Shown one piece after another: positions 3,286 through 60,364 of a DNA stretch of 64,000 nucleotides. The notes under the pieces were generated by a model. That model did not search any database, was not told where the DNA came from, and saw only the letters and a program-made list of their open reading frames with translations. Position 1 is the stretch's first letter. Every line of letters starts with the position of its first letter. This stretch comes from an uncultured Anaerolineaceae bacterium (lineage in GTDB: Bacteria > Chloroflexota > Anaerolineae > Anaerolineales > Villigracilaceae). Location of the stretch: assembly GCA_964371065.1 (NCBI GenBank), contig CAYJLS010000001.1, positions 4,383-68,382 of the forward strand, in the 5' to 3' direction. Position numbers and translations under genes: made by a program.

Positions 3286-3900
3286 ATGAAACCAAAGTAC
3301 ATTAGTCTCACCATCCTGCTCGCCCTGTTGTTCGCGGCCTGCGCGCCCAAAGCGACTCCCATGCCCACGCCCGATATCAGCGCCATCTCCACCGCCGCGG
3401 CAAAAACCGTCATTGCCGAAATTTCCGCCACCGCGGCCGCGGCCGCCTCCCTCACGCCGCTGGCCAGCCCAACCTCGGAGCCATCCACCGAAGCGCCCAC
3501 GGTCACAGTGACCATGACTGTGGGCGTGTTGACCACGCCCGGCATCATCGGCACCCCGCTGGGACTGTGCGCTGATGCTGTCTTCGTTTCAGATGTCACC
3601 GTCCCCGATGGTTCAGTCATGACTCCCGGACAGGAATTCCTCAAAACCTGGAAAGTCAGAAATACGGGTGACTGTACCTGGGGTGCGGGCTATACTATCG
3701 TTTATGGCGGTTATAACGATAAAATGAGCGGCGTACCTGCCGCCCTGTCCACCACCGTTATCCCAAACCAGGAAGTGGATGTATCCGTTCAATTCAAAGC
3801 GCCCACCAAGGCCGGGGAATATTTAAGCGCCTGGCGCATGGCCAACCCAAGTGGTTACGCATTTGGGCAGTTCTTCTTTATCAAAATCGTTGTTCGCTAG
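3286..3900 (+). CDS. Second lipoprotein with NBR1 Ig-like domain (tandem paralog)
   Basis: Lipobox FAAC; FVSDVTVPDGSVMTPGQEFLKTWKVRNTGDCTW. Confidence 0.85.
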   Translation: MKPKYISLTILLALLFAACAPKATPMPTPDISAISTAAAKTVIAEISATAAAAASLTPLASPTSEPSTEAPTVTVTMTVGVLTTPGIIGTPLGLCADAVFVSDVTVPDGSVMTPGQEFLKTWKVRNTGDCTWGAGYTIVYGGYNDKMSGVPAALSTTVIPNQEVDVSVQFKAPTKAGEYLSAWRMANPSGYAFGQFFFIKIVVR

Positions 3901-5048
3901 TGACAGGCGCGCTCAAACAGTCCATTCTTAACGAAGCGCACCGGCTGGGATTTATCCTGGCCGGTGTGACGACTCCCGACCCGCCGCCGCATTTCCCCGC
4001 CTTTGAAAACTGGCTGGCGCAAGGCCGCCACGCCGACATGTCCTGGCTCGCCTCCGAACGCTCCCGCACCCGCCGCGCCGACCCCAAACAAATCCTCCCC
4101 GAATGTAAATCCATCCTCGTGCTGGCAACACCCTACAACCGCCCTCCCTCTTTGCCTCTTCAAAAAGAATCTTCGCGCCCTCCCTGGCACCGCCCGCCAG
4201 GGCAGGTGTCGCCTCTTCGCGGTGAAAAAAGCCTCGGCCAAATTGCCGCCTACGCCCTCGGCGAAGACTACCATCTCGTCCTCCCGCCGCGCCTGCAAAC
4301 CATCGTCCAATTCATCGAAACACAGGTCGGCCACCCCGTCCCGAATCGTTATTACACCGACACCGGCCCCCTGCTCGAACGCGACCTCGCCCAGCGCGCC
4401 GGCCTCGGCTGGATCGGCAAAAACACCTGCCTCATCCACCCGCGCGCGGGCTCCTACTTCCTCCTCGCCGAAATTCTCCTCGACCTCCACCTCGATCCCG
4501 ACCCGCCCTTTCCCACCGACCACTGCGGAACCTGCGCGCGTTGCCTCGAAGCCTGTCCCACCGACGCCATCCTGCCCGACCGCACCCTCGACGCCAAACG
4601 TTGCATCTCCTACCTTACCATCGAAAACAAAGCCGACACCCCCGCCGAACTGCGCCCGCTCATGCAGGACTGGATTTTCGGATGCGACATTTGCCAGACG
4701 GTCTGCCCGTGGAACCGCTTTGCCGCGCCCGAGGGCGACGCCTCATTCGGACCTCGAAGCGGGTCCGCCCGCCCGGACCTGGTCCACACCCTCGCGTTGA
4801 CTCCCGCATCCTTCCGCCGACAGTTTGCGCGCACTCCCCTCCAGCGCGCCAAGCGCCGCGGCCTGCTCCGCAACGCGGCCGTTGCTCTCGGCAACCTCGG
4901 CGACGAACGCACCCTGCCTGCCCTCGAAAAAGCCCTCGACGATCCCGAACCAATGGTGCGCGAACATGCGAGATGGGCGATGGAACGAATCAACGAATCA
5001 GCGATTCAGCGATTCGGCAAGTCAGCAAATCGAAAATCGCAAATCTAA
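3900..5048 (+). CDS. queG: Epoxyqueuosine reductase
   Basis: DTGPLLERDLAQRAGLGWIGKN; CGTCARCLEACP and GCDICQTVCPWN Fe-S motifs; HEAT-like C-terminus. Confidence 0.96.
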   Translation: MTGALKQSILNEAHRLGFILAGVTTPDPPPHFPAFENWLAQGRHADMSWLASERSRTRRADPKQILPECKSILVLATPYNRPPSLPLQKESSRPPWHRPPGQVSPLRGEKSLGQIAAYALGEDYHLVLPPRLQTIVQFIETQVGHPVPNRYYTDTGPLLERDLAQRAGLGWIGKNTCLIHPRAGSYFLLAEILLDLHLDPDPPFPTDHCGTCARCLEACPTDAILPDRTLDAKRCISYLTIENKADTPAELRPLMQDWIFGCDICQTVCPWNRFAAPEGDASFGPRSGSARPDLVHTLALTPASFRRQFARTPLQRAKRRGLLRNAAVALGNLGDERTLPALEKALDDPEPMVREHARWAMERINESAIQRFGKSANRKSQI

Positions 5049-5056
5049 AATCTGAA
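4988..5056. repeat. Octamer/heptamer array across the queG stop and rdgB start
   Basis: AATCAACG AATCAGCG ATTCAGCG ATTCGGCA then AAATCGA AAATCGC AAATCTA AAATCTG. Confidence 0.8.
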
Positions 5057-5656
5057 ATGAACAAACTCCTGCTCGCCACCAACAACCAGGGCAAACTGCG
5101 TGAACTGCGCGCCATTCTTGCAGGCCTGCCGCTCGAACTCGTCATCCCCGCGGACATCCGCCTCGAACTCGATGTCCCCGAAGACGGCCTCACCTACGCC
5201 GGGAACGCCGCCAAAAAAGCCCTGGCCTTCGCGCGCGCCAGCGGACTGACCGCCCTCGCCGACGACTCCGGCCTCGAAGTGGAGGCGCTCGACGGCGCGC
5301 CGGGACTCTATTCTGCGCGTTATTCCGCCAAACCCGGCGCGTCCGATGCCGACCGCCGCGCGTTCCTCCTGCAAAACCTGCGCGGCCAGCCGCGTCCGTG
5401 GGCCGCGCGCTTCCGGGCGACGGTGGCCGTCGCGGGTCCCGAAGGAAACGTGCAAATCGTCGAGGGGACCTGCGAAGGCGAGATCATCCCCGAAGAGCGC
5501 GGCGCAGGTGGATTCGGCTATGATCCGATCTTCTTCCTTCCCGAACTTGGCAAGACAATGGCCGAACTGCCCGAGGAAACCAAAAACCGCCTGAGCCATC
5601 GGGCGCGGGCGGCGCAGGCGGCCAAGCCGATTTTGATGAGGTTGTTTGGTTTGTAG
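5057..5656 (+). CDS. rdgB: Non-canonical purine NTP pyrophosphatase (RdgB/HAM1)
   Basis: LLATNNQGKLRE, ADDSGLEVEALDGAPGLYSARY, GFGYDPIF, SHRA; true start ATG 5057. Confidence 0.96.
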   Translation: MNKLLLATNNQGKLRELRAILAGLPLELVIPADIRLELDVPEDGLTYAGNAAKKALAFARASGLTALADDSGLEVEALDGAPGLYSARYSAKPGASDADRRAFLLQNLRGQPRPWAARFRATVAVAGPEGNVQIVEGTCEGEIIPEERGAGGFGYDPIFFLPELGKTMAELPEETKNRLSHRARAAQAAKPILMRLFGL

Positions 5657-21013: not shown

Positions 21014-21722
21014 ATCTCCACACCTGATACAGCCCCAGCCATCCTCCCTCTCCATCCGAATAAAACGTCTCCGCGATTTCAAAGCCGCTTTCGGTTGCCA
21101 GCGCGGACAACTCCTCCTCGCTAAACTGATGCACATACCGCAATCCCTCGCCGCCGCGCCGCCAGTCGAGCAGATGGTCGCCCGCATCCACGTCTGCCGC
21201 GGTGAGACCGATCCGTTCCCAGGGTTGGACGCGTCCGCGCAGTTTGTCGCTGTTCAGGAATTGCCAGTTGGAGTGGATGAATCGTCCGTTGGGCGCGAGC
21301 AGGTCGCGAATCGTTTTTAGAATTTCCAGCCGCAACTCTTTCGAGGGGATGTGATGCAACGTTGCAAAACAAGTGATAACGTTGAACGTTAAACATTCAA
21401 CGTTCAACGCCCAATCGGAAGTCAAATCCACTTGCAGAAACCGCGCGGGAAACGAATCGGGGACGGCGGACGCGTCCGAAAGCAGGGACAGGCTAAAGTC
21501 GAGGCCGAGATACGGGGCGCGGTGGCCGCGCCTCGCCAGCGTCCGCGCTAGTTCGCCGTTGCCGCACCCGAGGTCCAGGATGGATTCGTCGCCGGTCAAA
21601 GTCCCCAGCAGGCGCGTCACGCCCGGTTGCAGTCTTTGGCGCGTGGCCGAAAAGTCCGCGCCGAAGCGTTCGTAAAAATCGCGGTTGAGCGCCAGCAGTC
21701 GTTGCGCGGTGGCTGAATCCAT
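21012..21722 (-). CDS. Class I SAM-dependent methyltransferase
   Basis: ILDLGCGNG motif I, FATLHH, LAPNGRF; start MDSATA at 21722. Confidence 0.88.
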   Translation of the reverse strand: MDSATAQRLLALNRDFYERFGADFSATRQRLQPGVTRLLGTLTGDESILDLGCGNGELARTLARRGHRAPYLGLDFSLSLLSDASAVPDSFPARFLQVDLTSDWALNVECLTFNVITCFATLHHIPSKELRLEILKTIRDLLAPNGRFIHSNWQFLNSDKLRGRVQPWERIGLTAADVDAGDHLLDWRRGGEGLRYVHQFSEEELSALATESGFEIAETFYSDGEGGWLGLYQVWR

Positions 21723-27539: not shown

Positions 27540-28343
27540 CTACCTCTTTATTTGACATTTCGGGCAAACGTGTGTGCCGCGCTGCCCGACCACCAGGCGT
27601 TGAATCTTCGTCCCGCACACGGGACAGGCTTTTCCCTCGCGAGCATACACCCGAAAATAATTCTGGAACTCGCCGCCGCGATAGACCCAGTCTATGGACG
27701 CGCCGTTGCGGCGGATGCCTTCGTTCAATACGGCGCGGATCGCCTCATGCAGGCGTTCGGCCTGCTTCCGTTTCACCGAGTCCGACGCGGCCAGCGGATG
27801 CAGTCGCGCCCGGTGCAGGGCCTCGTCGGTGTAGATGTTGCCCAACCCGGCGAGAAACGCCTGGTCGAGCAGCAGGGGCTTCAACCGGCGATGGCGGCGG
27901 CGCAGGTTGTCGTACAGCCATCCCGGCGTGAATTCGTCCGAGAGCGGCTCCGGGCCGAGTTTGCCGATGACGGTTTCAGGGTCGTCTGTCAACCAGGTGC
28001 GGCCAAATTTGCGGGTGTCGCGAAATATCAATATTTTATCGCCGGAAAGAAACAATCTCAACCGGTCGTGTTTTTCAGGCGGGTTGTTTCCTTCTTTTAT
28101 AAACAAATCGCCGCTCATGCGCAAGTGGACAAATAGGTTGAAAGTCGAAAGTCGAAGGTCGAGGAATTTGGCGCGCCGCCCCACTTCGAGAATCTTCTGC
28201 CCGCGAATCTGTTCCTTGAATTTCCGCGCGGAAGGACTCGCAATCGTCCGCGCCCAGCGTACGTCCGCGTCGAGGATCGTCGCGCCGACCAGTTCGGGGC
28301 GCAACGTCCGCGCGATGGTTTCCACTTCAGGGAGTTCTGGCAT
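27540..28343 (-). CDS. mutM: Formamidopyrimidine-DNA glycosylase
   Basis: MPELPEVE start, HLRMSG, AGLGNIYTDEAL, CPVC..CPKC zinc finger. Confidence 0.98.
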   Translation of the reverse strand: MPELPEVETIARTLRPELVGATILDADVRWARTIASPSARKFKEQIRGQKILEVGRRAKFLDLRLSTFNLFVHLRMSGDLFIKEGNNPPEKHDRLRLFLSGDKILIFRDTRKFGRTWLTDDPETVIGKLGPEPLSDEFTPGWLYDNLRRRHRRLKPLLLDQAFLAGLGNIYTDEALHRARLHPLAASDSVKRKQAERLHEAIRAVLNEGIRRNGASIDWVYRGGEFQNYFRVYAREGKACPVCGTKIQRLVVGQRGTHVCPKCQIKR

Positions 28344-28344
28344 T

Positions 28345-28447
28345 CTGGTAATTGGTGATTGGTAATTGGTAATCAGGTACTGATGACTGATCACTGATCA
28401 CTGATCACTGGTCACTGATCACTGATCGCTGCTCACTGCTCACTGGC
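28345..28447. repeat. Heptamer arrays TTGGTAA and TCACTGA
   Basis: About 14 degenerate 7-mers filling the prs-mutM gap. Confidence 0.9.
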
Positions 28448-31488: not shown

Positions 31489-31848
31489 TGTGCCTCCGCT
31501 TGAAAATTCCAAGCGGATTATACTATACTGAAAATCAGGCATTACGCCGCCTCGAATCGTGCGGAGTCAAAAGTCTCCCGACTTTGGAGTCCGCAAAAAT
31601 CTTCGCGGTTGGCGTAATTTTCCAAGTCGCACTCGTTCTTGAGAAGGGGACGTTTCCTCGGTCGAAAATTTACGATCCCACCAAAAGTGTTACGCAATAT
31701 CGCGAAGCATCCCCGTGAGACGCAATACGCAACACGCATCTCCTATCTCGCAACTCCTATCACGTAACACGCCCCCTCCGCAACGACATTGTAATTTTTC
31801 GCCTATTTCAGCCAGCCCTTCATTAATGAATTGTGCTATACTTTTAAT

Positions 31849-32825: not shown

Positions 32826-33448
32826 AACGAAGTCCCGTTGCCGCGGCCATCGCCATCTCGGTGGGCCTGATCGTTTTGCTCGGAACTTTCGCGCGGATCC
32901 CGTTGCTTGTTGCGGTGCGGCTCGAACTGGTGCAATGGGCGGCGATCCTGGCGGGCGTGGCCGTGTTGGTGGGGATTGGTAATTTATTCAGCGTTCATTA
33001 TCAAAAAGTGCGGTGCCGCGAGAAGGGCTGGTTCTACAGCCTCACCCTGCTCTTTGCCATGCTCGCGACCTTGCTGGTCGGCATGATTTTCGGCCCGTCC
33101 GGCGCGTGGATGCAGGCCGCGCTGGAAACCATCATTTTCCCTGTGGAAGCCTCGTTGATGGCGCTGTTGTCGGTCACGCTCCTCTACGCCAGCATCCGCC
33201 TCCTGCGCCGCCGCGCGGATTGGATGTCGGCGCTGTTTCTGGGGACTGTCGCGCTCACGCTCCTGGCCTCGGTCTCCCTGCCTGTGATTGGCGAGATTCC
33301 CATTTTAAGTGACTGGATCCGCCCCTGGCTGACGTATGGACTCGCGGCCGGCGGCGCGCGCGGGCTTTTGCTGGGGGTGGCGCTCGGCGCGTTGACCACC
33401 GGCCTGCGCGCCCTCTTCGCGCTGGATCGTCCCTACGGGGGGAAATAA
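32822..33448 (+). CDS. Polytopic (about 6 TM) hypothetical membrane protein
   Basis: Hydrophobic ORF overlapping both neighbours. Confidence 0.8.
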   Translation: MKRSPVAAAIAISVGLIVLLGTFARIPLLVAVRLELVQWAAILAGVAVLVGIGNLFSVHYQKVRCREKGWFYSLTLLFAMLATLLVGMIFGPSGAWMQAALETIIFPVEASLMALLSVTLLYASIRLLRRRADWMSALFLGTVALTLLASVSLPVIGEIPILSDWIRPWLTYGLAAGGARGLLLGVALGALTTGLRALFALDRPYGGK

Positions 33449-35766
33449 TGGCCGACCTGCTTTGCCCTCATTGCGGAATGCCCAACCCTCCCGGCCAGAA
33501 TGTGTGTTCTTTCTGCCGCCAGCCGTTGCGCGCCCCGGAAGACAGCCAGCCCATTCGCCCGGGCGAGTTGCCGACGAAAAAGACCACCGCCGAACTGGAA
33601 CCGGTCCTGCCCGACTGGCTGAAGGACGCGCGCGCAAACGCGCGCCGCGTGGACGCGGAAAATGCCGCCGAGCAAGCCCAAGCCGCGGTGGAACGCCCCG
33701 CGCCAAAAAAAGAGGAAGTCCCCGACTTGCTGGCCGGGTTGGAATCCGCCTCGCGCGAAGAACAGGATGACGAGATCCCCGAATGGATGCGCGGCGCGGT
33801 ATCCACGCCCGCAGAGCGGCCTGCCAAACCCGAAAAGCCGGAGCAGACCTTCCCGCGTCGCCAGGAAATCCACTGGGGCGATGAAACCAAAGAGGAAATG
33901 GGCGGCATGGCAACGCTTCCCATCCCGTCCGCGCCGGAAAGCGGCGATGCCATGCTCCCGTGGATGAGCGGCGCGGGGGATGAACCTGCCGCAGAAAAAG
34001 ATGAACGGAAACCGTCCAACTGGCTGGCCGGCCAAAACGCCGCGCCGCAGGAGCAGCCACCCGTTTCTCCGTTTCCCACTGGCGCCCTCCAGCCACCGTC
34101 CACCGGCGAACTCACCGGTTGGCTGGACAAGGTTGGCTCCGAATCCGCCGCGCCCGCCGACCAGCCTGCGTCGGAATCCGGTGATTCCATTAAGCGAAGC
34201 AATCCTGCGGATAAGCGAAGCAATCCTGCGGACGGCGACTGGCTCTCGAACCTGCCGCGCGGCGAGGCTTCGCCCGCGCCGGCGGAATCCAGCGAATCCT
34301 TTGGCGAGGATATAGACCTGCCCGAATGGATGAAGCCTGCCGCTGAAGCGCCCGCCGCGCCCAAAGAGAAACAGGCTGAAACTTCTGCGCCCGATTGGAT
34401 ATCATCTTTCCGCGAACAGGAACTGCTGGCGGGACGGTCGCCGTCGGCCCAGCTGGCGGAACCCGCCCCCGAGGTCCCGCGCGCCCCGGCCTTCGTCCCC
34501 GGCGCGGAGACTGCGGATCAGCGAAGCAATCCTGTGGACAGTAGCCAGGAGAATGAACTGTTCTCCATCGAAATGCCCGACTGGTTGTCGAACATCGCGC
34601 CGACCGACCAGAAGTCCGCCTCGACTGAGACGCAGGAGGCGATTGCCCCGGCTGACCTGCCCTCCTGGGTGCAGGCCATGCGCCCGGTGGAAAGCGTCCT
34701 GCTTGGGCCGTCGTTCACCGTCCCATCCGCCGAGGGACCGCTGGAGGAAAACGGCCCGCTTGCCGGACTGCGCGGCGTTTTGCCGACGGCCGGCGGACTG
34801 ATCCAGCCCGGCAAGCCCAAAGTCCAGGCCATCCGCTTGCAATCCAGCGAAGCCCAGCAATCCAGCGCGGCCCTGCTCGAACAAATGCTGGCCGCCGAAA
34901 CGCAAGCCAAACCTCTGCGCGGCGGCGGGAGGCTGGTTTCCCAGCGCGTCCTGCGTTGGATCATTTCTGCCATGCTGATTCTGCTGGTGACGTTTACCCT
35001 GCTGGGCGGGTCGCAAAGCGTGCCTTTGCCAGCCGCGCTCCCGGAAGAAAGTAACCTGCTGTTGCCGGTGATTGACCTCCTGGCCGAAGGCGCGCCGGTT
35101 TTGATGATTTTTGACTATGAACCCGCGCTGGCCGGTGAAATGGAGGCCGCCGCCGCGCCCTTCGTGGACCGCGTGCTGGGTCTGCGCCGCCCGCGCGTGA
35201 CCATCCTTTCGACCTCTCCCACCGGCGCGGCGCTGGCCGAACGATTTATGGCCGCCACCCAGGCGCGGCACAATTACCGGGGCGGGGAGGATTACGTTAA
35301 CCTGGGTTATTTGCCCGGCGGAACCGCGGGCATCCTTTCCTTTGCGGAAAACCCGCGCGCGGCCATGCCCCTGCCCGGTTGGGACTCGGCCGCGGCGCAG
35401 GGTGTGAGTCGCTTCTCGGATTACAAGGCGGTCATCCTGCTCACCGACCAGGCCGAGACGGCGCGCGCCTGGGTGGAGCAGACCGGCGCCACCCGCGCAG
35501 GCCTGCCATTGCTGGTGGTTTCCAGCGCGCAGGCCGCGCCGATGATCCAGCCGTACCTGCTCTCGGGGCAGGTCAACGGGCTGGTGAGCGGACTGCACGA
35601 CGGCGCGGCGTTCGAAAGTTCCAGCGGGCTGGGCAGTCCCGTGCGCCGCTATTGGGACGCGTACAACTTTGCCACCCTGTTCGCCGCCCTGCTGATCGTC
35701 TTCGGCGGCCTGTGGAATTTTCTTGCCGGGGCGCGCGCCCGCCGCCAGGGCCTGGATGAGGTTTGA
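33448..35766 (+). CDS. Double zinc-ribbon, long disordered P(D/E)W-repeat region, TM, globular domain, TM
   Basis: CPHC..CSFC; about 10 [PG/S][DE/N]W[LM] motifs; TM near aa 510; YVNLGYLPGG domain; C-terminal TM. Confidence 0.8.
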   Translation: MADLLCPHCGMPNPPGQNVCSFCRQPLRAPEDSQPIRPGELPTKKTTAELEPVLPDWLKDARANARRVDAENAAEQAQAAVERPAPKKEEVPDLLAGLESASREEQDDEIPEWMRGAVSTPAERPAKPEKPEQTFPRRQEIHWGDETKEEMGGMATLPIPSAPESGDAMLPWMSGAGDEPAAEKDERKPSNWLAGQNAAPQEQPPVSPFPTGALQPPSTGELTGWLDKVGSESAAPADQPASESGDSIKRSNPADKRSNPADGDWLSNLPRGEASPAPAESSESFGEDIDLPEWMKPAAEAPAAPKEKQAETSAPDWISSFREQELLAGRSPSAQLAEPAPEVPRAPAFVPGAETADQRSNPVDSSQENELFSIEMPDWLSNIAPTDQKSASTETQEAIAPADLPSWVQAMRPVESVLLGPSFTVPSAEGPLEENGPLAGLRGVLPTAGGLIQPGKPKVQAIRLQSSEAQQSSAALLEQMLAAETQAKPLRGGGRLVSQRVLRWIISAMLILLVTFTLLGGSQSVPLPAALPEESNLLLPVIDLLAEGAPVLMIFDYEPALAGEMEAAAAPFVDRVLGLRRPRVTILSTSPTGAALAERFMAATQARHNYRGGEDYVNLGYLPGGTAGILSFAENPRAAMPLPGWDSAAAQGVSRFSDYKAVILLTDQAETARAWVEQTGATRAGLPLLVVSSAQAAPMIQPYLLSGQVNGLVSGLHDGAAFESSSGLGSPVRRYWDAYNFATLFAALLIVFGGLWNFLAGARARRQGLDEV

Positions 35767-55132: not shown

Positions 55133-55190
55133 AAGACCTCGGTGGTAAGTGGTAAATAGTAATTGGTAATTACCACTTACCAATCACTAA

Positions 55191-56273
55191 TTATCTTCCG
55201 TATTTGTAATACGCCGCGCAGGCGCCCTCGGAGGAGACCATCGTCGCGCCGAGGGGATGTTCGGGCGTGCATTCCTTCCCAAAGGCGGAACAATCGTGCG
55301 GCTTCTTCATTCCCACCAAAATCTGTCCCGCAATGCACAGCGGCGATTCTTTCGTCTGGATGGCTCCCACGTCGAAGCGTTTCTCCGCGTCGAACGCGGC
55401 GAACTCCTCGCGCAGTCGCCATCCGCTCATGGGGATCGTCCCGATGCCGCGCCAGGTGCGGTCGCAATCTTCAAAGACCTGATGGATGGCGGCTTGCGCG
55501 GCCGGGTTGCCCTCGAACGAGACCGAGCGCGGGTACGCGTTTTCCACGGCCACGCGGCCCTCTTCCAACATGCGGACGGTGTACAGAATCCCCTGCGCCA
55601 TGTCCAGCGGCTCGAAGCCCGTCACCGCCATCGGCACATGATATTTTTCCGCCAGCGGCGGGTACTCGTGATAGCCCATCACCGTGCAGACGTGGCCCGC
55701 CAGCAAAAATCCCTGCACGCGGCAATCGGGCGAACCGAGGATGGCGTGCATGGCAGGCGGCACGCGCACGTGCGAAACCAAAATGGAATAATTCTTCAAT
55801 CCCAACGCGCGCGCCTTGAGCACGCTCATCACGTTGGGTGGGGCGGTGGTCTCGAAGCCGATGGCAAAAAAGACCACCTGCTTGTCGGGGTTCTGGCGCG
55901 CGATCTCCACCGCGTCCAACGGCGAATAGACCACGCGGACTTGTCCGCCCGCGGCCTTCACCGAGAACAGGTCGCGGTCCGAGCCAGGGACGCGCAACAT
56001 GTCGCCGTAGGAGCAGAAGATCACGTTCGGTTGGGAGGCGATCAAGAGCGCCTTGTCAATCAGTTCGAGCGGGGTCACACAAACGGGACAGCCCGGCCCG
56101 TGTACCAACTCAATTAACGGAGGCAGGATCTGGTCCAGCCCGTAGCGGACAATCGAATGCGTCTGTCCCCCGCAAATTTCCATGAGAACCCACGGGCGCG
56201 TCACTACGCGGCGGATCTCGTCCACCACGCCGCGCACCAGCGTTGCATCGCGATATTCGGTAACGTATTTCAT
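55191..56273 (-). CDS. hypD: Hydrogenase maturation protein HypD
   Basis: [36 protein letters not shown]. Confidence 0.98.
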
Positions 56274-56307
56274 ATTGGTTCTTCCATCCGAAATTTCGAA
56301 TTCAATC

Positions 56308-56347
56308 TTGACAACTCATCCGTTCCGTTGTACAGTGTTCCTGTACA
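56308..56347 (+). promoter_or_regulatory. sigma70 promoter and YefM-type operator
   Basis: TTGACA 56308-56313, 17 bp, TACAGT 56331-56336; TGTACA boxes at 56329-56334 and 56342-56347. Confidence 0.75.
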
Positions 56348-56363
56348 GAATGGAGCGTCTTCT

Positions 56364-56654
56364 ATGACTATCGAATTCACTTACACCAGCGCCCGCGAAC
56401 AATTGGCCAATCTGCTTAACCGTGTGACCAAAGACCGTGAAGTGATTATCATTCAGCGGCGTGGCTCCGAGGATGTCGCCATGATCGCGGCAAAGGAACT
56501 CGCCAGCCTGACTGAAACCGCGTATCTTTTGCGCTCACCGCAAAACGCCGAACGGCTTTTGTCCGCTTTGGCGCGCGCCTTGAAAAATGAAGGACAACCA
56601 CAAAGCATGGACGACCTGCGCCGCGAGGTGGGACTTGAAACCGAAAAACCGTGA
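56364..56654 (+). CDS. yefM: Phd/YefM antitoxin
   Basis: TYTSAREQLANLLNRV, SLTETAYLLRSPQNAERL. Confidence 0.95.
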   Translation: MTIEFTYTSAREQLANLLNRVTKDREVIIIQRRGSEDVAMIAAKELASLTETAYLLRSPQNAERLLSALARALKNEGQPQSMDDLRREVGLETEKP

Positions 56655-56910
56655 GGCCGTTTTCCAGATTGAGTTTATCGAGGATTTACGCTATTGGGTC
56701 GAGGCCGACCGCAAACTGGCGGTGCGCGTTCTCGATCTGGTTGACGCCATTCTGCGTGATCCCTTCGAAGGCATTGGCAAGCCCGAACCGCTCAAGTATC
56801 TTGCGCCTGGATGCTGGTCGAGGCGAATAACCCAGGAACATCGTATTGTATATCTCGTGCGGGACACACGAATTGACTTTTTACAAGCGCGATATCACTA
56901 CGGCAAATGA
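56635..56910 (+). CDS. yoeB: Txe/YoeB mRNA interferase toxin
   Basis: DPFEGIGKPEPLKY, WSRRITQEHRIVY, QARYHY; TTG start with GAGGTG RBS. Confidence 0.95.
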   Translation: MKPKNREAVFQIEFIEDLRYWVEADRKLAVRVLDLVDAILRDPFEGIGKPEPLKYLAPGCWSRRITQEHRIVYLVRDTRIDFLQARYHYGK

Positions 56911-57156
56911 TCAGGGGCCGAGTTCAGCCTCGATGTCGGTGATCTGCTTGAGCAAGTCCAGCGTCTCTTTGGCGTCCTCTTCGCTCAACAGGTTGAGCGC
57001 GAAGCCCACGTGGACGATGCAGTAATCTCCCACCTTTGCCTCGGGCACATAGGCCAGGCAGGTCTCGCGCACCACGCCGCCGAAATCCACCTTGCACATT
57101 TGCAGTCCGCCCTGTTCGTACATTTCAACGATCTTGCCTGGCACACCTAAACACAT
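56911..57156 (-). CDS. hypC: Hydrogenase maturation chaperone HypC
   Basis: MCLGVPG, VGDYCIVHVGFAL. Confidence 0.98.
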   Translation of the reverse strand: MCLGVPGKIVEMYEQGGLQMCKVDFGGVVRETCLAYVPEAKVGDYCIVHVGFALNLLSEEDAKETLDLLKQITDIEAELGP

Positions 57157-57181
57157 AATAGTCTCCTCGTCTGCTAGTCCG

Positions 57182-59560
57182 CTAGTCGGCTAGTTGTCTG
57201 GCGGCGATCACAGCTTGTCCCAAAGACAGTCCGCCATCGTTCGTTGGAACCTGCTGGTGTATGTATACTCGAAAACCGCTTTCCTGTAAAAGTGACAAAG
57301 AGCGTCCCAATAGGGTGATATTCTGCCAGACTCCGCCGGAGAGCGCGACCTCGTTGACCCCGAACTTCTCGCGCATGTCGAGGCAGACGACGCGGCAGAC
57401 TTCCGCGAGACCGTTGTGGAAGCGCGCCGAAATTTTTTGGATGGGGACTCCCGCCAGCGCGTCCGCGGTCAACGACTGGATTGCGCCTCTTCCCTTGACT
57501 TTGGGCGGGTTCCACGCAAACGGATATTTCCCACCCTCAAGCGGATCCGCCAACGCCTCGAACTCGATGGCCGCCTGCGCCTCATAGTTGACCGACTGCC
57601 GCACACCCGCCAACGCGGCGGCCGCGTCGAACAGGCGTCCCATGCTGGAGGTCATCGGCGTGTTGATTTTCTTTTCCAGTTGCACGCGCAGGGTCGTGCG
57701 GTCTTCCGCGCAAAATTCAGCCACGGACGCGAGACGGTCATCCCAGTCCAGTCCCAGCGACCAGAGCAGCGCCAGCGCGGTGCGCGCCGGTTTGCGGATG
57801 GCCGCGTTGCCGCCGGGAAGCGGGAAATATTCGAGTTGGCCCGCGCGCTGGCAGCCGCGATAATCCGCGATGAGAATCTCGCCGCCCCAGATGGCGCCGT
57901 CGTCGCCGTAGCCGGTCCCGTCGAACGCCAGGCCGATGACGGGACGCGAACCATCCAGTCCGTGCTCGGCCATGCAGGCCGCGATGTGCGCGTGGTGATG
58001 TTGGATGGCGATTGCCGGAATATTTTCGCGTTCTGCCCGTTGTAGCGTGTAGCGTGTTGCGAGGTAGTTGGGATGGAGGTCATGAGCGAGGGCAACCGGC
58101 TTCACGCGGAAGAGCCGCTCGAAATGCTCCACGCCCTGCTCGAAGGATTTCAAGGTCTCGTAGTTTTCCATGTCCCCGATGTGGTGGCTGAGGAAGGCGT
58201 AATTTTTGTTGGTGATGCAAAAGGTGTTTTTGAGTTCCGAGCCAGCCGCAAGAATTTGGGGGACTTCAAAGGGAAGTTTGACCGGGAAGGGGGAGTAGCC
58301 GCGGGAGCGACGGAGGGGGTATGTGGTGCGAGATGCGAGATGCGAGTTATGTATTGCGTGTTGCGTATTGCGTAACTCGGATGAATCGAAAACTCGCACA
58401 ACAGAATCGTCACAGCGGATGTGAATGTCGCGATCGTGGAAGAGGAAGGCATCCCCTAATTTTGACAATCGTTCGCGGGCCTCATCGTTGTCGGTGGCGA
58501 TGGGTTCTTCGGATAAATTCCCGCTCGTCATAACGAAAGGTGGAACGTTAAACGTTAAACGTTCAACGTTTGGGTCTGCAAACAACAAATAGTGAAGAGG
58601 TGTATATGGGAGCATCACGCCGAGCCAATCTTGAGCGGGCGCGACTTCTTGGGCGATGTTGGATTCGGGTTTTCGTTTCAGCAAAACAATGGGACGCGCG
58701 GTGGATAAAAGCAAATCACGCTCGGCGTCGCTGGCGAAGCAATGCCGCTTGATGGTTTCGAGATCGGGCATCATCAGCGCGAAGGGTTTGTCCACGCGGA
58801 GTTTACGATTGCGGAGTTCGGTGACGGCGGTTGCATTGGTCGCGTCGCAGGCGAGGTGAAATCCACCCAATCCCTTGATGGCTACGATCTTTCCTTCCGA
58901 TAAAAGTTTGCGAGTCTTTTGAATGGCATCCTCCCCATCCCATGTAGTGACGACTTCAGTCGTCCTTTGACGAATAAATTCGTCACTACATGGTTCGAGC
59001 CAGACATGCGGCCCGCATACAGGACACGCCACAGGTTGGGCATGGAATCTGCGATTGGTTGGATCGGTGTATTCCTTCTCGCAATCGGGACACATGGCGA
59101 AGGGCGCCATGGTTGTCTTGGGGCGGTCGTAGGGGATGTCTTTGATGATGGTGAAGCGCGGTCCGCAGTTGGTGCAGTTGATGAAGGGATAACGATAGCG
59201 GCGGTCAGACGGGTCGAAGAGTTCGCGCAGGCAGTCGTCGCAGATGGACACGTCCGGTGAGATGGGCTGGAAGGCGCCCTCCATCGCCTCAGAGTGGAGG
59301 ATGTCGAAGGAACGGAACCCGCCGGCGGGTCCGAAGGAGGCGGTCAGTTCGTCAATACGGGAAAGGCGCGGGGCTTCGTCACGCAACGATTTAACGAAAG
59401 AGTCCAAAACATCCTTTTCCCCATCCACTTCGATATCCACACCGGCAGAGGTATTTTTCACCCAGCCTTTGAGTTCCAATCGCGTGGCAAGATTATAAAC
59501 AAAAGGTCGGAACCCGACCCCTTGCACAATGCCCGTGATGTGAACCCGAAGCCCTTGCAT
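57182..59560 (-). CDS. hypF: Carbamoyltransferase HypF
   Basis: GIVQGVGFRPF, CDDC..CTNCGP, CPDC..CPVCGP, KGLGGFHLACDA, QHHHAH, DGTGYG, SSMGRLFDA, PTNDGGLSLGQ. Confidence 0.98.
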   Translation of the reverse strand: MQGLRVHITGIVQGVGFRPFVYNLATRLELKGWVKNTSAGVDIEVDGEKDVLDSFVKSLRDEAPRLSRIDELTASFGPAGGFRSFDILHSEAMEGAFQPISPDVSICDDCLRELFDPSDRRYRYPFINCTNCGPRFTIIKDIPYDRPKTTMAPFAMCPDCEKEYTDPTNRRFHAQPVACPVCGPHVWLEPCSDEFIRQRTTEVVTTWDGEDAIQKTRKLLSEGKIVAIKGLGGFHLACDATNATAVTELRNRKLRVDKPFALMMPDLETIKRHCFASDAERDLLLSTARPIVLLKRKPESNIAQEVAPAQDWLGVMLPYTPLHYLLFADPNVERLTFNVPPFVMTSGNLSEEPIATDNDEARERLSKLGDAFLFHDRDIHIRCDDSVVRVFDSSELRNTQHAIHNSHLASRTTYPLRRSRGYSPFPVKLPFEVPQILAAGSELKNTFCITNKNYAFLSHHIGDMENYETLKSFEQGVEHFERLFRVKPVALAHDLHPNYLATRYTLQRAERENIPAIAIQHHHAHIAACMAEHGLDGSRPVIGLAFDGTGYGDDGAIWGGEILIADYRGCQRAGQLEYFPLPGGNAAIRKPARTALALLWSLGLDWDDRLASVAEFCAEDRTTLRVQLEKKINTPMTSSMGRLFDAAAALAGVRQSVNYEAQAAIEFEALADPLEGGKYPFAWNPPKVKGRGAIQSLTADALAGVPIQKISARFHNGLAEVCRVVCLDMREKFGVNEVALSGGVWQNITLLGRSLSLLQESGFRVYIHQQVPTNDGGLSLGQAVIAARQLAD

Positions 59561-59562
59561 GA

Positions 59563-59632
59563 TTTACCAATTACCAATTACCAATTACCAATTACCAATT
59601 ACCAATTACCAATTACCAGTTACTGATTACGT
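59563..59632. repeat. Near-perfect heptamer run (TTACCAA), about 8 units
   Basis: Fills the hypB-hypF gap. Confidence 0.95.
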
Positions 59633-60282
59633 TTTACGTTTTGGAACAGCCAATCAATCCAGGCATCCAGGCCTTCGCCCGTGCGGCAGGAAATCGGGAA
59701 GGTGGTGAGGCCGGGGTTGAGGACTTCGACGCCGCGCTGGAAATAATCCATGCGAAAATTGATGTAGGGGAGCAGGTCAATTTTGTTGATAACCAGCGCG
59801 TCCACGCCGCGATACATGCCAGGATATTTGTACGGCTTGTCGTCACCCTCTGGCACGGAGGCAACGAGGATGGATTTGTGCGTGCCGAGTTTGAAACTCG
59901 CGGGGCAGACGAGGTTGCCAACGTTCTCGACGATCAGCAGGTCAAATTGGGTGAGATCGAGTTGGTCGAGCGCGCCGTGCAACATGACCGCGTCGAGGTG
60001 ACATTCGCCGCCGGTGTTGACCTGGATGGCGGCTCCCGCGCCGGCCGCGGCGGCGCGGTCTGCGTCAATGGAGGTGGCGATGTCGCCGTCCACGACCGCG
60101 ACGCGCAGTTGTCCCGCGAGGCGCGGCAGGGTCTGCTCGATCAGCGAGGTCTTGCCCGCGCCGGGCGAGGCCATGATGTTGACGGCGAAGACGCCCGCGG
60201 CGTCAATGCGGGCGCGGTTCTCTTCCGCGAGGCGGTCGTTGGCATTGAGGATGTTTTCTACGATTGAAACACGCTGGGTCAT
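59620..60282 (-). CDS. hypB: Hydrogenase nickel-insertion GTPase HypB
   Basis: ASPGAGKTS, GECHLDA, ENVGNLVCP, EGDDKPYKYP, NKID. Confidence 0.98.
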   Translation of the reverse strand: MTQRVSIVENILNANDRLAEENRARIDAAGVFAVNIMASPGAGKTSLIEQTLPRLAGQLRVAVVDGDIATSIDADRAAAAGAGAAIQVNTGGECHLDAVMLHGALDQLDLTQFDLLIVENVGNLVCPASFKLGTHKSILVASVPEGDDKPYKYPGMYRGVDALVINKIDLLPYINFRMDYFQRGVEVLNPGLTTFPISCRTGEGLDAWIDWLFQNVKRNQ

Positions 60283-60295
60283 GTTAGTTCCTCAG

Positions 60296-60364
60296 TTGGG
60301 TAGTTCGGTAGTTCAGTAGTTCGTGTTGCGTATTCCGTGTGTACCTGTTTACCTGTCTACGTTT
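60296..60364. repeat. Octamer arrays GGTAGTTC and GTGTACCT
   Basis: Same composite as 11259-11340 and the reverse complement of 46349-46470. Confidence 0.75.

Follow-up and report, generated by a model that had tools for sequence, protein, structure and literature searches.

Three linkers of HypF from Anaerolineales filled with in-frame short repeats: a probable case of colonisation by dispersed intergenic repeats

How does a conserved enzyme come to carry repeated DNA, in frame, at three separate places, and where does this DNA come from? In this work we have considered the question for hypF in a stretch of 64,000 nucleotides (all of which we call the window) from an uncultured Anaerolineaceae bacterium of the phylum Chloroflexota. 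The gene and its three inserts, in window numbering and with arrays as delimited by Tandem Repeats Finder (TRF), are the following:

57182..59560, minus strand: hypF coding sequence, 792 aa, with acylphosphatase, Zn-finger, YrdC-like and Kae1-like domains; intact, host of the three inserts
58940..58993, minus strand: insert 1, an inverted doublet of a GTAG-headed repetitive extragenic palindrome (REP) hairpin, REPIN-like; encodes P190-W207, PCSDEFIRQRTTEVVTTW
58544..58570, minus strand: insert 2, an AACGTTN heptamer array of 3.9 copies with 95% match (TRF); encodes N331-V339, NVERLTFNV
58327..58376, minus strand: insert 3, seven heptamers; encodes LRNTQHAIHNSHLAS in the YrdC-to-Kae1 linker, between DDSVVR and RRSRGY

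The inserts are probably the product of a non-adaptive colonisation of permissive HypF linkers by the dispersed short repeats of this lineage, with a filter for open reading frames and rapid replacement at sites already occupied. The host gene is not in question: as the preliminary description of this DNA had it, the gene is hypF, and its product is a full-length HypF carbamoyltransferase, which matches the solved structures from Caldanaerobacter (3vth, E=4.5e-214), E. coli (3tsp, E=1e-141) and Thermococcus kodakarensis (4g9i) along its whole length and has its closest database proteins in uncultured Anaerolineales/Chloroflexota.

The inserts are 9-18 aa long. Insert 1 lies in the linker from the Zn-finger CPVCGP motif to the YrdC-like domain and insert 2 in a loop of the YrdC domain directly before VMTSGN, and two of the three sites are domain junctions. 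It had been stated beforehand that the loops of E. coli HypF are shorter at these points (after CGP, before VMTSGN and between DDSVVR and RRSRGY). The alignment with 3tsp agrees, E. coli HypF being shorter by about 13, 8 and 21 residues at inserts 1, 2 and 3, and the HMMER alignments with 3vth and 4g9i are also gapped at all three sites, so that, mapped onto HypF structures, the inserts fall in gaps of all of them. In an AlphaFold2 model the predicted local distance difference test (pLDDT) values drop below 50 at the three inserts (residues 192-208, 329-339 and 377-424); the model was built on the 118 database orthologs described below and is used here solely for this low confidence. TRF splits insert 3 into TGCGAGA x2.9 and GTATTGC x3.4, and on the coding strand it reads as ACGCAAT/ACGCAAC units followed by CTCGCAT units. 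After shuffling of the hypF codons (n=1000) an array of period 7 or 14 with a TRF score of at least 35 appeared in only 7 shuffles, never more than one in each; the real gene has three such arrays, two of them at the insert sites. The original proposal of three in-frame, repeat-derived insertions thus stands, with three different repeat families at these positions and beyond what shuffling gives. Other candidates within the gene were rejected as background. A fourth heptamer site, TGTAGCG x3 at 58041-58061, falls in a segment, ATRYTLQRAERE, that is conserved in all Anaerolineales orthologs and aligns to 4g9i without a gap, and the recurrent weak arrays near residues 87 and 518 (CAACATT, score about 30-36) also lie in conserved protein segments.

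Are these inserts a peculiarity of one genome? We compared 198 HypF alleles, namely 118 database proteins (74-100% identity, 760-845 aa) and the loop DNA of 80 genomic orthologs from metagenome-assembled genomes of Anaerolineales. All three loops are hypervariable in these orthologs and derive from repeats almost everywhere, with more than 30 heptamer unit types, and one family can occupy different loops in different species. The main occupants are:

Arrays: CCAATTA (NYQLPIT); ATACGCA (RNTQYAI); AACGTTN (NVERLTFNV, STFNVKRST); AACCTTC (DLQPSTFDL)
Further arrays: GAAAATC (ENRKSxIENRKS); CATCCTT (SLHPSSFILHP); CAGAATG (QNAECRMQN)
Inverted pairs of arrays: [GATCAGT]n...[ACTGATC]n (SDQSSVIS...TDHWSLIT); [GGACCGT]n...[ACGGTCC]n (GPLTVDR...STVHRPPS)
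Palindromes: REP doublets (SDDFSRP..TTKVVTT); others (SLRGG..RRSN, ALSEVEG)

Loops 2 and 3 also have short states, LLEKADDFPQAL (12 aa) and RVFEKEIY (8 aa). TRF found 180 non-overlapping arrays in the 80 hypF genes, 140 of them in the three loops; 114 have period 7 and 14 have period 14. With a median of about 4 units at 88% match, the arrays are short and imperfect; the lengths of loop 3 cluster at 18, 25 and 32 aa, that is, in steps of 21 nt. The preliminary description had allowed that close orthologs might share the loops without any periodicity in the DNA. Aligned with Anaerolineales orthologs, the loops differ already at about 88% core identity, and periodic DNA runs throughout them.

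The arrays of inserts 2 and 3 are of the kind present in nearly all intercistronic spacers of the window. For periods 7 and 8 we counted 104 arrays in 188 kb of hypF and 67 in 66.5 kb of intergenic DNA and gene ends, and these counts give the loops a repeat density like that of intergenic DNA. The interiors of other coding regions held 9 arrays in about 431 kb of flanking DNA and 29 in 562 kb on unrelated contigs (672 kb in all). Density is thus about 1 per kb in intergenic DNA against 0.02-0.05 per kb in coding interiors, and hypF exceeds other coding DNA 10- to 26-fold. The units themselves are also shared: 33% of the hypF array units are identical, allowing for rotation and reverse complement, to an intergenic unit of the same loci, against 2% (at most 7%) in a letter-shuffle null, and with one mismatch allowed the values are 65% and 24%. 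Within the window, the ACGCAAC unit of insert 3 recurs as an intergenic array at 31720-31738, and ACTGATC x9.6 stands in intergenic DNA at 28379-28445, with ACTGATA/ACTGATT units in loop 3 of orthologs (L038, L047). The earlier proposal that intergenic repeats colonise protein loops gains from this sharing of units, and from the dispersed, mostly extragenic REP family and its transposase contig discussed below; less apt is its picture of three one-off insertions, and the sequences compared are better described as three hot spots that hold hypervariable repeat cassettes order-wide.

If such repeats entered a functional gene, only those that leave the frame open should persist. All three loops are open in every one of the 80 genomic and 118 database alleles (frameshifted, 0/198). 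One allele, that of L041, had been considered as a broken hypF, and this was rejected, as it is intact with a TTG start and MTSAN in place of MTSGN. Units that contain a stop codon occur only in the stop-free orientation (CCAATTA, never TAATTGG). In units of the TGATCAC/G type, where the TGA position is read as a codon it is TGA in 0 of 28 cases and mostly one of its one-step neighbours TGG, TCA and TTA, and where the same position is out of frame TGA is kept in 12 of 39. The kept frame together with the purging of in-frame TGA is a pattern expected only if the inserts are translated through.

The loops also change much faster than the gene around them. Between orthologs with cores at least 97% identical the loops are about 90% identical; at 90-97% core identity this falls to 34-42%, with a loop still recognisably shared in about 20% of pairs. 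Among relatives at about 88% core identity, some have insert 1 in common, insert 3 in part and a variant or another family at insert 2, and others have wholly different occupants. The imperfect 27-nt array of insert 2 nevertheless recurs at 27/27 positions in the hypF of L031 and at 26/27 in L003 and L032, genes with only 70-77% DNA identity that use the same codon at about 51-63% of conserved residues. A near-identical array in genes so diverged speaks for DNA-level copying or homogenisation and not for drift of a coding segment. In close relatives AACGTTN (NVERLTFNV) and AACCTTC (DLQPSTFDL) arrays stand at the same position of loop 2, with the same G-to-C change in every unit, which suggests either a concerted change across units or a replacement by a sister family. 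Repeats are also found within repeats. In L004 and L017 (hypF loop 1), and also in L125 and L152, the hairpin loop of REP units holds small additional pieces, for example GGGCGCTTCGCGG, placed exactly within it, and the loop-3 array of P0009 has a further nested piece. In loop 1 of P0015 the REP doublet and eight codons beside it stand twice in a row (...PRSDDFSRPPTTKVVTTWEGDDAIQE PRSDDFSRPPTTKVVTTWKDDDAIRE), a tandem duplication of the sort that unequal recombination between repeats would leave.

Insert 1 differs from the other two in being a palindrome, with 25-nt arms at 58940-58964 and 58969-58993 that are 88% complementary and separated by a 4-nt spacer. Each arm holds one REP unit of 21 nt, with an inner hairpin and GTAG at one end:

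58944..58964, plus strand: canonical REP unit GTAGTGACGACTTCAGTCGTC, arm B of insert 1, 0 mismatches
58969..58989, minus strand: variant REP unit GTAGTGACGAATTTATTCGTC, arm A of insert 1, two substitutions relative to the canonical unit

The two substitutions of the variant are symmetric, so its own inner hairpin is kept, and the same variant occurs on two unrelated contigs (L092 and L199). Shuffles of the window give an expected count of 0.00 for the unit. A scan with GTAGTRACGACTTYAGTCGT found it on at least 120 metagenome contigs; among the matches listed about three quarters (about 94/120) lie outside long open reading frames (ORFs), many as inverted dimers, and the inverted two-unit layout of insert 1 is repeated on many contigs. 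On some metagenome contigs the unit lies in frame inside penicillin amidase, DUF4397 and DUF1501 proteins. Judged from its sequence, insert 1 is a GTAG REP doublet, or REPIN, in the structural sense. On one contig (L170, 2618-3229) inverted units of the same family flank an ORF of 149 aa that resembles a REP-associated tyrosine transposase (RAYT). It matches NCBIfam NF047646 with E=9.8e-22 (77.4 bits against a cut-off of 80 bits, covering profile positions 42-146) and the E. coli TnpA-REP structure 4er8 with E=3.3e-9; Pfam, unlike NCBIfam and PDB, did not recognise the ORF. Three or four further REP units are clustered downstream of it. The family of insert 1 is therefore, going by this predicted gene, RAYT-associated on at least one contig.

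How could these observations fit together? We envisage that the lineage has a repertoire of 7-nt, less often 8-nt, arrays of many families, of GTAG REP inverted doublets and of a few other palindromes, which would normally reside in intercistronic spacers. Copies of them may enter hypF at three linkers that tolerate insertions and deletions, between the Zn-finger and YrdC domains, in the loop before MTSGN and between the YrdC and Kae1 domains. Only in-frame, stop-free versions would survive, and these would be translated as extra, probably disordered residues of surface loops while HypF stays functional. Once occupied, a loop could become a landing pad, where arrays are replaced, nested into, duplicated and resized with a turnover much faster than that of the gene core. 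We infer that REP doublets may be moved by a RAYT-type transposase and that heptamer arrays may spread by slippage together with template switching or by gene conversion between arrays, and the effect on the enzyme would be neutral.

Several points weigh against this reading. The mobility of the repeats is deduced from comparison of sequences. The sole REP copy in the 64-kb window is insert 1 of hypF itself, and a search of the window and of all loci compared with a RAYT-motif regular expression gave nothing relevant; the RAYT of L170 was spotted only by looking between inverted REP units. That gene is 5'-truncated (the first 41 profile positions are absent) and lies on a metagenome contig. 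As to the earlier statement that RAYT mobilises GTAG-type REPs, the class of repeat, its dispersal over metagenome contigs, its mostly extragenic sites and the transposase of L170 agree with it; for the window the link is indirect, because there hypF holds the one REP copy and a RAYT was not found. Tolerance alone does not account for the 10- to 26-fold excess of arrays in hypF. Some arrays look as if they had been seeded by conserved flanking codons, such as the GTTGGAA units that run on from the codons for W-L-E (TGGTTGGAA), and this is also compatible with growth in place. No RNA-seq run containing hypF turned up when such runs were searched for, and the AlphaFold2 model is moderate, with a mean pLDDT of 68.5 and low values in the Zn-finger region as well. 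Lastly, two arrays elsewhere in the window lie within other genes:

21378..21409, minus strand: AACGTTC x4.6 array in a class-I S-adenosylmethionine (SAM) methyltransferase (LNVECLTFNV), 25/27 nt matching insert 2
28140..28162, minus strand: GAAAGTC x3.3 array in Fpg/MutM (DLRLSTFNL), giving a peptide of the family found in hypF loop 2 of other species

Compared with solved homologs, the methyltransferase array adds 2 aa (UbiG structures) and the Fpg array 0 (1l1t). These arrays stand in for structural residues, and simple insertion is thus not the whole story.

Could the arrays be more than passive passengers? It is possible, if somewhat doubtful, that the heptamer arrays are an actively copied, DNA-level element system of Anaerolineales with some installing machinery. 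The HypF linkers would then be self-perpetuating landing pads that record the rules of insertion, replacement and nesting, and the system would resemble, in the way it behaves and for part of its units also in sequence, the STRR and TAACTGA arrays known from filamentous cyanobacteria and Beggiatoaceae. Under the same proposal the slippage of a single unit might serve as a reversible frameshift switch of hydrogenase maturation.

We consider it unlikely that the arrays arose in place, by replication slippage of the local coding sequence and with no import, the recurrent units reflecting mutational bias or convergence. Besides the GTTGGAA units that continue from W-L-E, GTGTTCA units continue from V-F before GATCAGT-type arrays, the 21-nt steps in loop-3 length are what slippage could leave, and published work, which cites Mrazek, puts forward polymerase slippage as favouring 7-nt units (PMC4679880). 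Local slippage, however, does not account for the exact sharing of a third of the units with intergenic arrays, for the recurrence of unit families in different loops and genes or for an identical imperfect array of 27 nt in genes only 70-77% identical. Nor can it yield a REP doublet or inverted pairs of arrays, and the short-state sequence of loop 2 is unlike AACGTT.

An adaptive or regulatory role seems to us similarly improbable. The inserts might form mRNA hairpins that pause ribosomes at domain boundaries, tune the length of linkers or, as heptamers, act as frameshift (phase-variation) switches for hydrogenase maturation. The placing of two sites at domain junctions would suit the first of these roles, as would the predicted folding of insert 1 (-34.1 kcal/mol, z=-8.9) and insert 2 (-12.9 kcal/mol) as mRNA; insert 3, however, has no significant structure (z=-1.0). 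The conservation of the insert-2 element at the DNA level and the enrichment of arrays in hypF over other coding DNA could likewise speak for a function. Yet the occupants of the loops are interchangeable among many unrelated families, and loops 2 and 3 are in the short state in many species. As for a switch, the gain or loss of one 7-nt unit does shift the frame, but none of the 198 alleles is frameshifted, the arrays are short and imperfect, and no variants in unit number were seen in the contigs of four sediment-metagenome runs, where rare variants may be hidden. The locus does not in these respects behave as a phase-variable contingency locus.

That the inserts are removed before the mature protein is formed, as a mini-intein, an intron or by translational bypass, is very improbable: at 9-18 aa they are far too short for an intein, an Rfam scan of the whole window matched no family, and frame and freedom from stops are kept in 198 of 198 alleles, with in-frame TGA purged.

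The sequence itself is well supported. Over 57100-59593 the contigs of the four separate runs match the window throughout (0 differences, 0 gaps); in two runs a single contig spans this stretch, and in the other two it is covered by overlapping ones. The HypF protein is found unchanged on 32 contigs, and near-identical copies come from other sources. Depth in the four runs is about 21, except at the three inserts and the array upstream of hypF, where it rises to 54-607, which indicates that the community contains multiple copies of these sequences. In three runs another contig of the same depth has the insert-1 palindrome with 4 mismatches. Aquifer and groundwater runs that share about 18% of words represent diverged relatives, and their contigs are too fragmented at the repeats for a comparison of loops. 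Multicopy repeats are able to confuse assemblers, and an assembly artefact had been named in advance as a possible explanation, but the agreement of four independent runs excludes an assembly error over this span, and with an intact ORF, catalytic motifs invariant in all 118 database orthologs and a complete hypABFCDE cluster, misassembly or decay to a pseudogene can be set aside.

Beyond hypF, the window has dozens of 7- and 8-nt tandem arrays, 17 of period 7/8 lying in 6.9 kb of non-coding DNA or at gene ends according to a simple gene map. The order of genes around hypF is hypA-hypB-hypF-hypC-(yefM/yoeB, antisense)-hypD-hypE, and four junctions of the cluster (hypA-B, hypB-F, hypF-C and hypD-E) have a 7- or 8-nt array. 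The arrays at these junctions, for which no strand is assigned, are:

59564..59623: intercistronic TTACCAA x8.6 (TTGGTAA toward hypF) between hypB and hypF, ending 4 nt before the hypF ATG
59627..59642: TTACGTT x2.3, forming the last codons of hypB (QNVKRNQ and the stop codon)
57169..57194: 8-nt array GTCCGCTA x3.2 across the hypF stop codon and the hypF-hypC spacer
60294..60360: two arrays of 8-nt units in the spacer between hypA and hypB
55143..55171: TGGTAAT x4.1 in the spacer between hypD and hypE, shortly before the likely hypE start

The start of hypF has no Shine-Dalgarno (SD) sequence, TTGGTAA x8.6 being directly upstream, and the unit family of this spacer array (CCAATTA, read NYQLPIT) is found inside hypF loops of other species. 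The yefM/yoeB pair at 56157-56910 on the plus strand (YefM, Phd_YefM antitoxin, E=3e-14; YoeB toxin, E=1e-33) is antisense between hypC and hypD in a cluster that is otherwise co-directional; the YefM ORF as listed overlaps the 5' end of hypD, so the true start of the antitoxin is probably further in.

The C-terminal residues of QueG, HypB and HypF are read out of adjacent arrays. In the QueG-like epoxyqueuosine reductase (3900-5048, plus strand) the last 20 or so residues come from CGAATCAG and AAATCGA arrays at 4986-5057 (ending in ...NESAIQRFGKSANRKSQI and the stop codon), and this tail looks repeat-derived. We also noted some other cases within coding regions. A low-complexity protein of 772 aa with no Pfam match (ORF 33448-35766, plus strand) contains a perfect 21-nt tandem duplication at 34191-34232 (KRSNPAD KRSNPAD), the core of which, GCGAAGCAATCC, resembles the SLRGG..RRSN palindromic family of hypF loop 2 in L005 and L006. 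On other contigs, paired GGGAGATT and TCTCCAA arrays lie in frame in a molybdopterin oxidoreductase (L163, 1391-1486), and in-frame 7/8-nt arrays lie in the linker between the transmembrane and nucleotide-binding domains (TMD-NBD) of an ABC transporter (L199, 3109-3141) and between the two domains of a GHMP kinase (L083, 962-985).

What can be learned from such a locus? The HypF orthologs amount to some 200 natural replicates in which three linkers of one conserved enzyme have been overwritten by dozens of repeat families with the enzyme left intact, and they show how much arbitrary sequence inter-domain linkers can absorb. The shared imperfect arrays, the nested elements, the purging of stop codons and the 21-nt steps form a record from which the mechanism of array copying may be worked out. 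There is also a practical side: unless such loops are masked, they will distort alignments of Chloroflexi proteins as well as their phylogenies and predicted structures.

Finally, how do these repeats compare with those already known? Selfish repeats in frame in proteins are not new, given the Rickettsia palindromic elements (RPE) and scattered intragenic REPs, and heptamer arrays have been treated as intergenic curiosities of a few phyla. The RPE are reportedly found in frame in protein genes (reports ascribed to Ogata et al. 2000 and Claverie & Ogata 2003). They are selfish palindromic DNA of about 100-150 nt that is translated, sits in frame at permissive surface positions and is patchy among orthologs; to our knowledge, their sites have not been reported as multi-family hot spots with rapid replacement. 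Insert 1 is likewise a palindromic repeat in frame in a conserved protein at a permissive site. It differs in its size of 54 nt and in its host, an Anaerolineales bacterium, the comparison being one of sizes and taxa; insert 1 works like an RPE and is not a member of that family. RPE are mentioned in the same paper that describes GTAG-tagged REPs, intragenic ones included (Di Nocera et al. 2013, PMC3733652), and REPINs were described by Bertels & Rainey 2011 (PMC3116915). Insert 1 resembles these in its GTAG head, short hairpin, two inverted units and short spacer, and its family resembles them in being dispersed, mostly extragenic, found beside a RAYT on one contig and present in frame in other proteins, a situation that Di Nocera describes from other species as well (PMC3733652). 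Unlike them, the hypF doublet measures only 46-54 nt and is one of many interchangeable loop occupants, the 64-kb window has shown neither a RAYT nor a second copy, and in part of the orthologs its hairpin loop has small elements set into it.

Inserts 2 and 3 would belong with the heptanucleotide arrays of the STRR/TAACTGA kind. The STRR (short tandemly repeated repetitive) arrays of cyanobacteria are said to go back to Mazel et al. 1990, and such heptamers are said by Vioque 1997 to lie inside the RNase P RNA gene of heterocystous cyanobacteria. As there, the heptamers of hypF are tolerated in a functional gene at a dispensable, variable loop, although an RNA gene has no reading-frame filter. 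In Nostoc, Elhai et al. 2008 reportedly described dispersed repeats of very small size that insert preferentially into existing repeats, nesting in hairpins and in heptamer arrays; the tiny elements nested in repeats in L004, L017 and P0009 are alike in behaviour and come from another phylum. STRR are mentioned in PMC2858038, GGGNATC heptamer repeats occur in Nostoc and Xanthomonas (PMC4692102), and TAACTGA direct repeats were described in Beggiatoaceae and cyanobacteria (MacGregor 2015, PMC4679880), a paper in which Chloroflexi are not mentioned. According to a 2015 paper there was no detailed literature focused on heptamer arrays (PMC4692102), and the literature searched contained no paper that deals with heptamer repeats in Chloroflexi or with HypF loops filled by repeats. 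Arrays of the TAACTGA type are mainly intergenic, with a few copies at the ends of ORFs or between modules (PMC4679880, PMC4692102), and an array directly before a start codon without a Shine-Dalgarno sequence, as at hypF, is the arrangement found for TAACTGA in Beggiatoaceae (MacGregor 2015, PMC4679880). The arrays described here share with STRR and TAACTGA the head-to-tail 7-nt units in many copies, mostly in short spacers at gene ends or before starts that lack an SD sequence, and the few copies in ORFs, only in the stop-free orientation and at protein termini or between modules. The units of STRR1-3 were not seen among the Anaerolineales arrays; ACTGATC and ACTGATA/ACTGATT are rotations of TAACTGA or one mismatch away from it, and most units here differ. 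The Anaerolineales arrays are unlike the known ones in having a Chloroflexota host, dozens of unit families instead of one to three and frequent pairing with the reverse complement. They extend the biology of heptamer arrays to the Chloroflexota and, again unlike the known systems, fill the internal loops of a conserved enzyme throughout an order at a density like that of intergenic DNA.

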